Part shown: positions 3,354 through 30,900 of the stretch, one piece after another
Layout of the letters: each line of letters opens with the position of its first letter
How positions within the stretch are numbered: the first letter of the stretch is position 1
Assembly: GCA_020724845.1 (NCBI GenBank)
Contig: DYGE01000001.1
Span: forward strand, 58,218-122,217
DNA from: Candidatus Paceibacter sp.
GTDB taxonomy: Bacteria > Patescibacteriota > Minisyncoccia > UBA6257 > 02-FULL-45-10c
DNA: 64,000 nucleotides
Direction: 5' to 3'
Notes under the pieces: model-generated
Database searches by the model: none
Seen by the model: only the letters and a program-made list of their open reading frames with translations
Told to the model about the DNA's origin: nothing
Made by a program: the position numbers and the translations under genes

Positions 3354-4319
3354 CTATTTAATTAGTTTTTTAAACTCTTCTACCATTGGCACTTGCTCCG
3401 CCTCAACTCCGTATTCTTTGGCAGTATAATAAGCCGTCCAGTCCGCCAAAAGCAAGGAGGAAAAAATCTTATGGAAATGGTTTTTGCCATTTACGATTAC
3501 AACTTCGGACGGCAGACGCCTTTCGCGGTACAATCTTTCGGTGACGTTCATCCGTTTGGTTATCTTAGGCTGGTCGGCAACATCTTTTAGAAAAACGAAG
3601 TAAAAGTACTTGGAAAGCGCGCCAGTGGAATCTTTAACGTCAAAGCCGGTCATTTCGTTGTGGTTGAGTTCCGGGAAATAATTGATGAAAGCCGGTATCT
3701 TTCCGGTTTCATTGAATTTTATTTTCCAATTATAAGCTATTGGCATATTTCTTTCGGATGAATAAATTACCGGCACATGCCCTTTCAGTTTTCTGGCGAG
3801 GGCTTTGCCGATCCTTTCGGCTTCGTAAGATTTCATTAGTTTCGCCAGTTCGGTCAGCTCACTGCTGAATTTATTTTCTTTCATTACCGCCGCCAGTGAT
3901 TTTATTGAATATCCCAAGGCGGATCTCGGCTGGATTCCGGTAGCCGGCATTTGCACGTGCGGGACCTTGCTCTTCTTAGCGAGATCTAAGAGTTTCCCGC
4001 CGGTAGAAACAGCCGCTAAGGGATACTTCATTTTTGAGGCGAGCTTGAAGCCCTCAATAACTTCTTCGGTATTGCCCGAATACGAACTGGCGATAATTAA
4101 ACTTTGTTTTAAAACTGCGGGGCTAAGTTTCGGCAAGCCATAATTGCGGTGAGACATGACATCAAAATAGGGGTCGCGGATTTTGAATAGGTCCGCGGCC
4201 AGGTTGGAGCCGCCCATCCCAAGGACGATGAATTTCTTGAATTTTTTCAGCTTCCCGGCATTTTCAATAACCGGCTTGTATTCAAACTGTTTAGGAAAAT
4301 TTTTTATTGCTTCGTGCAT
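3354..4319 (-). CDS. Bifunctional phosphoglucose/phosphomannose isomerase (SIS-domain PGI/PMI family)
   Basis: GMGGSNLAADL SIS motif; the ~320-aa size fits archaeal-type bifunctional PGI/PMI. Confidence 0.75.
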   Translation of the reverse strand: MHEAIKNFPKQFEYKPVIENAGKLKKFKKFIVLGMGGSNLAADLFKIRDPYFDVMSHRNYGLPKLSPAVLKQSLIIASSYSGNTEEVIEGFKLASKMKYPLAAVSTGGKLLDLAKKSKVPHVQMPATGIQPRSALGYSIKSLAAVMKENKFSSELTELAKLMKSYEAERIGKALARKLKGHVPVIYSSERNMPIAYNWKIKFNETGKIPAFINYFPELNHNEMTGFDVKDSTGALSKYFYFVFLKDVADQPKITKRMNVTERLYRERRLPSEVVIVNGKNHFHKIFSSLLLADWTAYYTAKEYGVEAEQVPMVEEFKKLIK

Positions 4320-26549: not shown

Positions 26550-26688
26550 ATCCAGCTAGTATTGGTATCATGTGCTCGAGGTTAACAACGCTTGGTCATG
26601 TACCTTGCTTGGGTGCCCCATGTAAAGTGGGCGCTGTCCTCTCCGGTCCCCCCTGCACAAGCGCGCTTGTGCAGGGGGCATTTTTATT
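26543..26688 (+). ncRNA. Candidate small RNA (~110 nt): promoter TTGACA-17-TATCAT, then intrinsic terminator
   Basis: -35 TTGACA at 26543-26548, 17-bp spacer, -10 TATCAT at 26566-26571. Hairpin ccccctgcacaagc/gcttgtgcaggggg at 26649-26680 followed by TTTTTATT. No plus-strand ORF or downstream plus-strand gene. Confidence 0.4.
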
Positions 26689-27730
26689 CTTCTTGTAATA
26701 TTTCGGGGCGCCCTAAGAGTTCCGGCTCTATACCTACGGCCTGGTCGGTAATCTTTAGCACGTCTTTATCAATTTTGCCGAGTTCCTTATAGGCGCTGTT
26801 GTACATATTTACTGAAGTTCCCAGATGCGTTCCCAATTTTTGCATATATGATTCGTAGCTGGACAGATGTTTGCCAAGCGCTTCAACTCTCTTTCGGATT
26901 TCTTTTGCCGATTCTTCAATCTGCAAAGCTTTAAGGCCTTGAAGCACGGTCTGCAAATAAGCGAGGAAGGAAGTCGGAGAAACGATGATGACATGCCTAT
27001 CCTTAAAGGCGTATTGGATAAGATCCTGCGTATTTGCTTTAACCGCGCCTACTTTGTTGATCAGCAGATCGTAGTAAATCGCTTCGGCGGGAATAAACAT
27101 AAAAGCGAATTCCATCGTCCCCTCCTCCGGCTTTACATATTTAGCGGTTTCATCGATGCGGTTTTTTAAATCCTGCCGGAAAGCTTTTTCCAGCTCTTCT
27201 CGAGTTTCTTGGTCGCGCGCCTCTAAAATTCGGTTGTAATTTTCCAAACTGAATTTGGAGTCAATAGGGATTATTTTGTCCTGAACGAAAATAACCGCAT
27301 CCACGATAGTCCCATCCTTGAATGGATATTGCATCTGATATCGCCCCGGGGGAAGGACATTTTTAAGGAGCGTTTCCAGATAATATTCACCCAGCACTCC
27401 GCGCTGTTTCGGATTTTTGAGGATATCCTGCAAGTTCTGCAGCTGGTCGGCAAAGCTGACGACTTGCTTGTTGGTTTCATCCAATTTGGCGAGGCGTTCG
27501 GTAACATCCCGGATAATCCGGGCGCTTTCTGAAAATTGCCTCTGCATTGAACGGGTTGACTCGCCTATTTTGGAATCCAAAGTATTCCTAATTTCGTGAA
27601 GCTGGCTTTGGAGCATGACCAGAGACTGCTCATCTCTTCTTGTCTCCGGTTTTTGGCTGCGCAAAGCCCAAAATACAGTGGCGAATCCGAGCACTACAAC
27701 TATTAAAATTAATATTGAAAAAATATCCAC
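26684..27730 (-). CDS. rmuC: DNA recombination protein RmuC
   Basis: N-terminal TM, long coiled coil and RmuC core; GTG start. Confidence 0.85.
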   Translation of the reverse strand: MDIFSILILIVVVLGFATVFWALRSQKPETRRDEQSLVMLQSQLHEIRNTLDSKIGESTRSMQRQFSESARIIRDVTERLAKLDETNKQVVSFADQLQNLQDILKNPKQRGVLGEYYLETLLKNVLPPGRYQMQYPFKDGTIVDAVIFVQDKIIPIDSKFSLENYNRILEARDQETREELEKAFRQDLKNRIDETAKYVKPEEGTMEFAFMFIPAEAIYYDLLINKVGAVKANTQDLIQYAFKDRHVIIVSPTSFLAYLQTVLQGLKALQIEESAKEIRKRVEALGKHLSSYESYMQKLGTHLGTSVNMYNSAYKELGKIDKDVLKITDQAVGIEPELLGRPEILQEE

Positions 27731-27855
27731 CCCGTTAGAGCCAGGTCGTCTTTAGACGACCGTAACTCGGGCGGCTAAATTGTTTCTGGCGATTAATTAT
27801 GATTCTTAAAATAAAATATAGTTTAGCAGACATAGCTTGATTGGCTCTAACGGGG
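27730..27855 (-). promoter_or_regulatory. Structured rmuC 5' leader: 14-bp inverted repeat (ccccgttagagcca / tggctctaacgggg) spanning ~125 nt, with inner hairpin ggtcgtctttagacgacc
   Basis: Read directly; the proximal arm abuts the GTG start codon. Confidence 0.5.
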
Positions 27856-27885
27856 TCCATAGTCTTAATCTTTGAATTTTACCAT

Positions 27886-27912
27886 AAAAAAACCGCATGT
27901 AGAATGCGGCTA
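27886..27912 (-). terminator. Intrinsic terminator (ccgcatgtagaatgcgg + 7-T run on minus)
   Basis: Directly after the stop of the 54-aa ORF. Confidence 0.65.
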
Positions 27913-27916
27913 GGCT

Positions 27917-28081
27917 TTAAGCCCCGAAAAATCTCATCAGCAGCTTGGTCAATTCAACGGCGATATCTCTTATAACGTCAATCAATGCCGCATGAACAAG
28001 ATGCAAGATTGCGACTACTGGAAGAAGAAGGATTGCTAAAAGCACAATCTGCGCCCAACCGTTCTTTGATTCCATTATCAT
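27917..28081 (-). CDS. Small membrane protein (54 aa)
   Basis: Below the 60-codon ORF-track cutoff. MIMESKNGWAQIVLLAILLLPVVAILHLVHAALIDVIRDIAVELTKLLMRFFGA. Sits 41 nt downstream of the peptidase gene and is followed by a terminator. Confidence 0.4.
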   Translation of the reverse strand: MIMESKNGWAQIVLLAILLLPVVAILHLVHAALIDVIRDIAVELTKLLMRFFGA

Positions 28082-28122
28082 GACCCCGAGAAGAACTTAT
28101 TTAGAGGATAATACTAAATCAT

Positions 28123-28776
28123 TTATGAAACAAGGGTCGCGCCGATCATTAGGTAGTCCAGATCGGTGCCAGCACGTAAATCCAGAAAATGTCCTTCCGG
28201 GAAAAGCGGGTAAGAATGAACAACATTGTCGTAAAGGCCGAATCTCTCTTCCACGTAAGAAGGAGAGACGAATGCCTTTGGCTCGTATTTTCTGCCATTT
28301 TTCCAAGCGAGCAGCATATTCGGAATTATATCAATTACGGCAACTTTATTTTCCGGAGACGCGGTTATCAGCAGGCTGTCCGCAGCATGGAATTCAAGCG
28401 CTTTTTCCGCCAGGCCCGCGTAACAGCAATCATTAACGAAGATCAACCGACTTCCATGATGTGCAAGCGCCAGAGCCAATTCGGAGTAGAAGAGAATATC
28501 GTCGCAAGTGCCCTGAACCGCCCATCCTCCACCATCTTTTTTACTGCCGTGTCCTATGTAAAACAGGCACACATCCTCTTTTGAGCTTTCTATAAATACT
28601 TCTTCCAGTTTTTCAAAAATTTCAGCGCTGTCCGCGTTTCTAATAATCAGCAGATTCTGCAAGGGAACTTTGAAGTCAGTAGTAAGGCTACTAGTTAATT
28701 GTTTAGCAACTTTTTCAAATCTCTGGCCGTCAGTATCCTTGGAGTTGGTTTTTCCAAGCACTATTATGGCTTGCAT
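28123..28776 (-). CDS. Clan CD cysteine peptidase, C13 (legumain)-like core
   Basis: His-Gly (LFYIGHGSKKDGG) and Cys (LIFVNDCCYAGLA) dyad in the spacing and context of legumain (IYFTDHGAPG / FYIEACESGS). Confidence 0.55.
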   Translation of the reverse strand: MQAIIVLGKTNSKDTDGQRFEKVAKQLTSSLTTDFKVPLQNLLIIRNADSAEIFEKLEEVFIESSKEDVCLFYIGHGSKKDGGGWAVQGTCDDILFYSELALALAHHGSRLIFVNDCCYAGLAEKALEFHAADSLLITASPENKVAVIDIIPNMLLAWKNGRKYEPKAFVSPSYVEERFGLYDNVVHSYPLFPEGHFLDLRAGTDLDYLMIGATLVS

Positions 28777-28859
28777 CGGATCCCATTTTCAAAGAATGCA
28801 GTGATTATAAAACTTTCCTGACAAAAGTAAAGGAAAAAATTATAACATGGCAGCCTCGC

Positions 28860-29432
28860 TTAGCGCACCAACACTTCTATGCCGCTTAGAAGCAGAAATA
28901 TTCCTATAGAATTCAGAATGAATGAGAGGGCCGCGAATTGCTTATCCCCCAGTTTGTAAATGCCAAGCAATCCTACGCCCATCTCATCCGGAAACGGAGA
29001 CGCGATTAAAATAGCTCCCAATACCGGCCCGAGCCAGACGAAATATTTTGTGTGAATAACCCAATGGAATCTTAATAAGTTTTCTCCTCCGACTTTTCGG
29101 AATACGCTCTTTAATTCATCGGATAGGTCATCCTTCACAAATTTAAAGATAGTATAGTCGCCGATTACGGCTCCCAGGCCGGCAAGTACCGCGACTGCCG
29201 GGATATTCAAGCTCTCTCCTAATAAAAACAGCAAAGCTGTGGCGGGAACTACCGTAAAAGTGGAGACGAAGAAAATTCCTACCACAAAGGCGCTGAAATA
29301 CCCGAAAACCCCCAGAGATTCAATTATCTGATCAAAAAAACCAGTCTGGGAAAATAGGTAGGTTAAGATCAGGACGGAGAAGAATATCGCTAGGTTTGGA
29401 TATTGCAAGCTGTCTCTATGGCTCATAGTCAT
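28860..29432 (-). CDS. Hypothetical polytopic membrane protein
   Basis: 190 aa with 5-6 TM helices. Confidence 0.5.
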   Translation of the reverse strand: MTMSHRDSLQYPNLAIFFSVLILTYLFSQTGFFDQIIESLGVFGYFSAFVVGIFFVSTFTVVPATALLFLLGESLNIPAVAVLAGLGAVIGDYTIFKFVKDDLSDELKSVFRKVGGENLLRFHWVIHTKYFVWLGPVLGAILIASPFPDEMGVGLLGIYKLGDKQFAALSFILNSIGIFLLLSGIEVLVR

Positions 29433-30702: not shown

Positions 30703-30900
30703 CTATCTTCCGAAACCTCCTCGGAAAGCCGGTCGGCGCTTTTTATTGCAATCGTAGCAATATAAGCGTCCGTAGGTGCCGTCTTGCCTTTTATTCGGCT
30801 CAAACGGTAATTCCTTGATCTGCGTGCCGCACTCGGTGCAAGTGATGTTCATGGCGGACACATCATGCATTTGGCGCTGGGGCCTGTTTTGCATCTCCAT
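30703..30900 (-). CDS. Small zinc-ribbon protein with RGG tail
   Basis: CTECG...CYDC four-Cys ribbon; C-terminal RPAFRGGFGR. Confidence 0.55.
   Translation of the reverse strand: MEMQNRPQRQMHDVSAMNITCTECGTQIKELPFEPNKRQDGTYGRLYCYDCNKKRRPAFRGGFGR

Follow-up and report, generated by a model that had tools for sequence, protein, structure and literature searches.

Gene organization of the locus

This report concerns a two-gene unit, and the rmuC gene that follows it, in a 64,000-nucleotide stretch of DNA from Candidatus Paceibacter sp. (NCBI GenBank assembly GCA_020724845.1, contig DYGE01000001.1, positions 58,218 to 122,217 of the forward strand). We call the whole stretch the window, and positions are given in its own numbering. 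The first gene of the unit encodes a small cysteine peptidase of clan CD and the second a 54-residue membrane protein, here called the microprotein. All of the genes involved are on the minus strand, at the coordinates that an earlier reading of the DNA (the sequence-only reading) had given. In the direction of transcription, the features are:

28804..28831 (-), promoter-like site TTTACT-16-TATAAT, a consensus match only, within the 83-nt gap 5' of the peptidase gene
28123..28776 (-), peptidase gene, 217 residues, a single-domain clan-CD (caspase/hemoglobinase fold) cysteine peptidase
27917..28081 (-), microprotein gene, 54 codons, a predicted single-pass membrane protein, the conserved partner gene
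27884..27911 (-), intrinsic terminator with an 8-bp stem (AGCCGCAT/ATGCGGTT), a 5-nt loop and a run of seven T's (T7), at the end of the two-gene operon
26684..27730 (-), rmuC, 348 residues, intact (Pfam RmuC, E 1.1e-57), with a GTG start at the junction of an inserted element and its flank

The microprotein ATG lies exactly 41 nt past the peptidase stop codon, as the sequence-only reading had it, and the terminator that it had called strong is present as listed; orthologous loci also have a hairpin and T-run at the equivalent position. Because the peptidase and microprotein genes have their own promoter-like site and share one terminator, they look like one bicistronic unit, and rmuC is a transcription unit apart from it.

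The peptidase is a minimal caspase fold with an intact dyad

What kind of protein is the 217-residue peptidase? An AlphaFold2 (AF2) model built on a 34-sequence alignment has a predicted local distance difference test score (pLDDT) of 93.6 and a predicted TM-score (pTM) of 0.91; it replaces an earlier model on 6 sequences, which was poor (pLDDT 60.3) and was set aside. The order of its elements, b1-a1-b2-a2-b3-(three short strands)-a3-b4-a4-b5-a5-b6, reproduces the clan-CD layout of a central six-stranded sheet, five flanking helices and a small three-stranded sheet after b3 (PMC4357240). The protein contains the segments ...VCLFYIGHGSKKDGGGW... and ...RLIFVNDCCYAGLAEKA..., in which the predicted dyad residues are His76 (codon 28551-28549), on the loop after b3 (strand 69-74), and Cys118 (codon 28425-28423), on the loop after b4 (strand 111-116). 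In alignments of the family profile with Arabidopsis metacaspase-4 (AtMC4), GHG falls on YSGHG (His86) and the second Cys of NDCC falls on DSC(139)HSG (Cys139), and the motifs of Geobacter GSU0716 align in the same way. Residues G75, H76, G77 and C118 are invariant in both the 34- and the 43-sequence alignments of the family, and W158 is invariant in the former and nearly so in the latter. The sequence-only reading had described a compact clan-CD core with His-Gly and Cys motifs, and both descriptions held: the model and the profile alignments agree on the core, and the two motifs are the catalytic His and Cys of the clan-CD dyad. The protein would be an active protease, with Cys118 as the predicted nucleophile and His76 as the predicted general base. 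There is no signal peptide, transmembrane (TM) helix, prodomain or inter-subunit linker, which argues for a minimal cytoplasmic caspase fold.

The family to which the peptidase belongs is less easily named. None of the Pfam and NCBIfam models reaches its threshold with the protein. The best Pfam match is C14 (PF00656), at 17.2 bits against a cut-off of 21.4 (E 0.0042), and Raptor_N is also among the sub-threshold Pfam matches. The NCBIfam model 'caspase, EACC1-associated type' (NF047832) matches in part, with 29.7 bits against a cut-off of 140 (E 4e-7), as does, weakly, the PADLOC caspase model (E 0.0017). PHROGs gave nothing, and no above-threshold family emerged from the Pfam, NCBIfam, PADLOC, PHROGs and PDB sequence searches together, whose sub-threshold matches were all to clan CD. 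Close relatives are few: there are only six among 5.8 billion protein clusters, none of the six with a Pfam annotation. A profile search of 1.84 billion representatives retrieved 122 proteins at E <= 1e-3, nearly all of 100-300 residues, and the few long proteins among them are bona fide Pfam C14 or C13 proteins. The named relatives are all Patescibacteria, and the sole match in a reference genome is to a Candidatus Harrisonbacteria genome (locus L007; related loci are cited by such numbers where they must be told apart). No copies were found on viral contigs, and a literature search on caspases or metacaspases in Patescibacteria or the Candidate Phyla Radiation (CPR), and on caspase-like proteins paired with small membrane proteins, found nothing relevant.

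The label that the sequence-only reading gave the protein, C13 legumain-like, has to be given up. Pfam C13 (PF01650) does not match the window's peptidase at E <= 1, and in a Pfam scan of 43 family members it was found in only one (a weak match, E 1.8e-4), with Raptor_N found in 10, C14 in 7 (E <= 0.01) and C25 in 4; the nearest structural neighbors are C14 enzymes and not C13. The family is best described as a separate, unannotated family of clan CD, about equally distant from the C14 metacaspases and from C13 legumain/GPI8.

Comparison with the known families bears on this placement. The metacaspases and orthocaspases (MEROPS C14B; Arabidopsis metacaspase-4 and -9, yeast Yca1 and Geobacter GSU0716) share with the peptidase the (Y/S)GHG His motif and a Cys after a hydrophobic strand. 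The peptidase, however, is only 8-16% identical to them, has NDCC where they have DSCHSG, and at 217 residues lacks a prodomain and a p20/p10 linker, with no evident extra strands and no evident calcium-site region. Legumain and GPI8 (PIG-K) of C13 share the six-stranded core and five helices, and GPI8 is a caspase-fold subunit held at the membrane by partner subunits, which is what we propose below for the peptidase. The C13 enzymes differ in having a signal peptide, prodomain or LSAM domain and in being lumenal or vacuolar, whereas the peptidase has none of these, is predicted to be cytoplasmic, and has a single 54-residue protein as its partner. The Pfam family that relatives match most often is the N-terminal caspase-like domain of Raptor (PF14538). 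Raptor is a eukaryotic scaffold and is not known to be catalytic; the peptidase family has an invariant His and Cys, which argues for catalysis.

A conserved membrane microprotein

Is the 54-codon open reading frame (ORF), for which gene callers are split, some predicting it and others not, a real gene? The sequence-only reading had listed it as unannotated, with its conservation beside peptidase homologues to be checked. That conservation was found. A homologous ORF of 46-58 codons lies directly 3' of the peptidase gene in nine other distinct loci (L001, L002, L003, L005, L006, L010, L012 and L013, plus a gene fusion in L018), in most of which its start codon abuts or overlaps the peptidase stop codon, and it is retained in loci whose peptidase shares as little as 28-31% identity with that of the window. 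Within the window's clade, synonymous divergence of the microprotein gene is 0.46-0.82, near saturation, and non-synonymous divergence is 0.09-0.20, with a ratio of the two (dN/dS) of 0.11-0.16 where computable. The 54-codon ORF is a real gene under purifying selection.

All versions of the microprotein have a short polar N-terminal tail, one strongly hydrophobic helix (about residues 9-33 in the window), a helix breaker, and an amphipathic tail of about 20 residues. The 19-residue Kyte-Doolittle mean of the TM segment is 2.4-3.1 across nine homologues, against about 1 for the C-terminal 20 or so residues, so that the two hydrophobic helices of the sequence-only reading become one strong TM segment and an amphipathic tail. 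The TM helix is also the most conserved part of the protein. No family was found for the microprotein in Pfam, NCBIfam, PADLOC or PHROGs, the only match being a non-significant one to Pfam DUF6480 (E 0.65).

We also note a two-cysteine motif at the C-terminus of some versions. It takes the form C-x7-C-P in L001 (6655-6828), L002 (6652-6825), L003 (1886-2059) and L006 (493-666), the L005 protein (3775-3915) ends in C-x4-C-N, and the motif is missing from the microproteins of the window, L010, L012 and L013. An extracytoplasmic disulfide that has been lost in some lineages is possible.

In locus L018 (GCA_964388125.1, contig CAYLXW010000058.1) the two proteins are joined. The 256-residue product P0015 (L018 1143-1913) is an in-frame fusion that runs from the peptidase into a clear microprotein homologue (...KLFINLRENNEVKSGAEEILGLAAIAAAFAVAAYPLIQLSGIHDLLTQVSIYCAKAIFSLFGVQS), with the loss of about 15 C-terminal residues of the peptidase. 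A one-base frameshift in the overlapping arrangement of the two genes does not account for a fusion that lacks these residues, and we consider a frameshift artefact unlikely, though the fusion comes from a single assembly. An in-frame fusion argues for physical coupling of protease and microprotein, and would put the N-terminus of the microprotein on the cytoplasmic side, with the protease. The microprotein is most likely a physical partner of the peptidase and, we suggest, its membrane anchor.

Evolution and context of the gene pair

The pair has diverged in a manner quite unlike its neighbors. Between L010 and L013 most of the flanking genes are closely similar, with protein identities of 89% for the S41 gene, 97% for L27, 93% for a 255-residue gene, 95% for RmuC, 90% for a 98-residue ORF and 73% for the less conserved LigT. 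The peptidases are only 44% and the microproteins 49% identical (L010 5001-5802, L013 4001-4796). At the nucleotide level, identity of about 80-90% in the flanks falls to about 50-60% across the pair and recovers within about 100 nt on each side. The pair of L013 is nearest that of L012, and the S41 and RmuC genes of L013 are nearest those of L010. This discordance, together with the island of divergence, indicates that the two genes have a shared history unlike that of their neighbors, through either cassette exchange or very fast co-divergence. Such evolution is suggestive, in that it fits a role in conflict or in envelope remodeling better than one in core metabolism.

The position of the module is much steadier than its sequence. 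It lies just upstream of rmuC in 10 of the 10 genomes in which rmuC was located, directly so except in L018, where one gene intervenes, a 238-residue gene, lipoprotein-like and with an HExxH motif, between the fusion gene and rmuC. Members of the family are found near groESL in the window, L001, L002, L008, L010, L014 and L015, and in a distant clade the family adjoins LemA and HtpX-like M48 genes. In three loci of that Patescibacteria clade, two tandem peptidase paralogs lie with groES-groEL on one side and lemA on the other, and M48 or TPM genes come next (L008 3952-5615, L014 4001-5563, L015 4001-5575). These loci have no small TM ORF, and the second L015 paralog has a C-terminal tail that is hydrophobic or amphipathic (…QLILKIMQLVVELLRIFWCILKPS).

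Possible functions of the pair

What does the pair do? The reading that we favor, and in which we place about even confidence, is that the operon encodes a Cys118/His76 protease which a co-translated single-pass partner keeps at the cytoplasmic membrane face, and whose targets are fast-changing and membrane-proximal. The bicistronic operon would yield the minimal caspase-fold protease in the cytoplasm and the 54-residue membrane protein together; the microprotein, with its N-terminus in the cytoplasm, would serve as membrane anchor or regulatory subunit and would tether the protease; and the two genes would be inherited and exchanged as a single cassette.

Several points weigh against this proposal. 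The AF2 models cover the peptidase alone, and we infer the binding of the pair. The fusion is found in one assembly only, and release of an effector by the protease is equally compatible with it. The peptidase of the Harrisonbacteria locus (L007) has no microprotein beside it, and the GroESL-LemA clade (L008, L014 and L015) has tandem peptidase paralogs in its place, so that in relatives outside the window's subfamily, the partner is not essential to the function of the fold. Fast divergence could be nothing more than relaxed constraint, as is frequent in the lineage-specific genes of these genomes: the same genomes share only 36-42% identity in another hypothetical protein of the region. Since other nearby lineage-specific proteins also evolve fast, a conflict-type role is suggested, not proven. 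The loci were sampled by the presence of the peptidase.

Is the microprotein instead a latent membrane-disrupting effector or toxin, which the protease cleaves or releases upon a trigger such as infection, so that the membrane collapses as in gasdermin-protease and effector-associated caspase systems? There is much in the arrangement that recalls bacterial gasdermin-protease pairs and EACC1/EACC2 systems, in which a caspase-fold protease sits beside, or is fused to, a membrane-active partner and evolves fast and in cassette-like fashion. Here too a caspase-fold protease is co-transcribed with an adjacent hydrophobic peptide, the evolution of the two is very fast, cassette-like and phylogenetically discordant, as is typical of conflict systems, and the EACC1-associated and PADLOC caspase models match the peptidase weakly. 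P0015 resembles caspases with a C-terminal effector, for which autoproteolytic release has been proposed (PMC8195603). Those model matches, however, are far under the family thresholds, and PADLOC has no other defense-system match at the locus. No EACC1-like, sensor, NTPase, adaptor or other defense gene is found nearby, there is no defense-island context, and none of the family was found on viral contigs. The fixed position upstream of rmuC is syntenic and looks vertical rather than patchy, the microprotein is under ordinary purifying selection, and if its N-terminus is inside, only about 8-10 of its residues would be exposed to a cytoplasmic protease. The sequence-only reading had judged the partner far too small for a gasdermin, and we agree: the gasdermin fold takes roughly 240 residues or more and has a cleavable inhibitory tail, whereas the partner here has 54 residues and one TM helix. 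We consider a latent effector unlikely. A bolder form of the idea, that in Patescibacteria the pair forms a miniature membrane effector system gated by the protease, in which the caspase cleaves or frees its partner of about 50 residues to permeabilize the cell on phage attack or host-derived stress, we regard as distinctly improbable. If it were true, the system would stand as a functional counterpart to gasdermin-caspase pyroptosis at roughly one-fifth the size, and an arms race would lie behind the rapid exchange of cassettes at a fixed locus.

Two further explanations would change the relationship between the genes. One might think of precursor and maturase, the small ORF giving a peptide that is membrane-active or exported, like a bacteriocin or a signal, and the protease processing its tail, with fast evolution as diversification of the product. 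The tight coupling and co-divergence of the two genes would suit such a scheme, as would the paired C-terminal cysteines (C-x7-C or C-x4-C) in 5 of the 9 separately encoded homologues, which recall many secreted peptides. But the cysteines are not conserved, the TM helix and not a mature-peptide region is the best conserved part, a protease without a signal peptide would reach only the short N-terminal tail, and no locus contains an exporter, immunity gene or modification enzyme; there seems little chance that this explanation is correct. Or are the two genes neighbors without a functional link, a soluble housekeeping or proteostasis protease of Patescibacteria near groES-groEL and an unrelated small membrane protein kept beside it by synteny? 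On this view it counts that the family always maps to within a few kb of groES-groEL, and many family members lack the microprotein. We doubt it strongly, given that in most loci the stop codon of one gene overlaps or abuts the start codon of the other, a discordant history is common to both genes, a single terminator serves them, and an in-frame fusion exists. The membrane-tethered protease accordingly stays our preferred reading of the pair.

An insertion at the rmuC start codon

The sequence-only reading had also described a structured leader for rmuC, with a 14-bp inverted repeat spanning some 125 nt whose proximal arm lies at the GTG start and could occlude initiation. The repeat is there, perfect and with a span of 126 nt, and its arm is at the GTG. 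The leader is, in our view, no conserved regulatory leader but a lineage-specific insertion resembling a miniature inverted-repeat transposable element (MITE), a label that we keep provisional. The features are:

27730..27855 (-), MITE-like element, 126 nt, with perfect 14-bp terminal inverted repeats and a flanking TGGA direct repeat, within the former start codon of rmuC
27744..27761 (-), GC-rich hairpin inside the element, GGTCGTCT-AA-AGACGACC, directly beside the terminal repeat nearer the start
27735..27860 (-), 41-codon ORF created by the insertion, from the ancestral rmuC ATG to a TAA 4 nt before the present GTG

The arms of the repeat, CCCCGTTAGAGCCA (27855-27842) and TGGCTCTAACGGGG (27743-27730), are separated by 98 nt, and the first G of the rmuC GTG, at 27730, lies within the proximal arm. 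The repeat is more than chance would give, as a 14-mer of this kind has 0.33 expected matches in the window even with 2 mismatches allowed. In orthologous loci, rmuC starts 36-74 nt after the terminator, and alignment of the orthologs shows that their ATG GAT... matches the window's ACTATGGA at 27860. The window has ATGGA at 27860, then the 126-nt element, then TGGATATTTTTTCA. When the element and one TGGA are removed, ATG GAT ATT TTT TCA (M D I F S) is restored, as in the orthologs, and seven distinct orthologous rmuC loci are empty sites without the element. These empty sites, and the TGGA duplication that restores the ancestral ATG, argue that the element was inserted in the start-codon region. 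A short element would have entered the rmuC start codon and duplicated TGGA, giving rise to the GTG start and the 41-codon upstream ORF; the present GTG consists of the element's last G and the duplicated TG. Could rmuC still be read through the element from its ancestral ATG? That ATG is 130 nt upstream, hence out of frame relative to rmuC, and its ORF passes through the element to end at the TAA, so that read-through was rejected.

When metagenome contigs were searched with a two-arm pattern, two further copies came up, both in metagenome Ga0172380, at L016 769-891 and L017 1627-1745 (123 and 119 nt). Both have 13-nt termini identical to those of the window's element and a GC-rich hairpin next to one terminus, which differs in sequence from that of the window and keeps the same pairing. 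Both lie right against the ATG of an unrelated gene, in one case for RNase III and in the other for a 376-residue membrane protein, and their orientation relative to that gene is the reverse of the one seen in the window. All three copies are at an [A/G]TG[A/G]A start, a hint that start codons are preferred either as targets or by selection.

Bacterial MITEs such as Correia, ERIC and RUP offer a comparison. Like them, the element is non-coding and about 120 nt long, has terminal inverted repeats and a flanking direct repeat, shows empty sites in relatives, and is inserted at a gene boundary, where it alters a 5' region. It differs in having no similarity to any Rfam family, three copies found, an inconsistent duplication and no known partner transposase; it carries no transposase itself. 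Two findings speak against the transposon interpretation: the length of the target duplication is inconsistent among the three copies, being 4 bp (TGGA) in the window and 6 bp (ATGAAT) at the RNase III gene of L016, with none recognizable in L017, and there is one copy in the 64-kb window and none in 16 related loci (about 120 kb). It is because of the inconsistent duplication and low copy number that the MITE label is provisional. The element was not found on viral contigs, and a literature search on MITEs in CPR bacteria found nothing relevant.

One would think that so strong a structure at a start codon must be there for a purpose, as a dedicated translational or riboregulatory element. The leader folds with -58.7 kcal/mol (z = -4.2), as well as which none of 200 shuffles (0/200) folds; positions -13 to +1 of the GTG start are tied up in the perfect 14-bp stem; and the stop codon of the upstream ORF, 4 nt before the GTG, could couple translation. 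Yet the element is missing from the seven orthologous loci, occurs beside unrelated genes in the opposite orientation, has at its flanks a direct repeat from which the ancestral start can be rebuilt, and has no Rfam match on the leader, and we hold a dedicated regulator to be most improbable. The stem may hinder initiation at the GTG as a side effect of the insertion, and ribosomes translating the upstream ORF would pass through the stem and could lift that block. The exact RmuC protein that begins at the GTG is not in a 15-billion-protein collection, although the neighboring proteins are, so that gene callers evidently chose a different start because of the insertion.

Other features near the operon

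Directly 5' of the operon is a gene for a 190-residue multi-pass membrane protein (28860-29432, minus strand) without a Pfam or NCBIfam match. It is kept in L003 (83%) and L005 (62%), and in L001 and L002 a Na/Ca exchanger gene is found instead, which makes the upstream boundary of the module variable too. A 65-residue ORF at 30703-30900 (minus strand) has two CxxC pairs and is zinc-ribbon-like; its position is kept in L001 as a 67-residue gene. The Rfam model RAGATH-19 gave a weak match at 28760-28855 on the plus strand, over the 5' end of the peptidase gene and the gap upstream, of 26.3 bits against a gathering score of 85.6; with an E of 0.29 this is at chance level and was judged to be chance. 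A second copy of the module was ruled out by the tblastn result.

Implications

Proteases of the caspase fold have a central part in cell death and immunity, yet their simplest bacterial forms are poorly mapped. The fold type of clan CD is known; what is new is a minimal, unannotated clan-CD family with a microprotein partner. The family is a caspase fold of about 200 residues with an intact dyad, and its named relatives are all ultra-small, host-dependent Patescibacteria. The rmuC gene provides a natural example of a small element that lands in a start codon without costing the gene a usable start, and a caution for the annotation of start codons. The microprotein gene, for its part, illustrates that small ORFs overlooked by some annotation sources can be real subunits. 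One subfamily has a dedicated membrane microprotein, sometimes fused to the protease, and so offers a testable minimal system for the localization of a caspase fold at the membrane, or its gating there. The fast, cassette-like evolution of the pair marks it as a candidate module for conflict or envelope remodeling, in organisms in which almost nothing is known of such systems.

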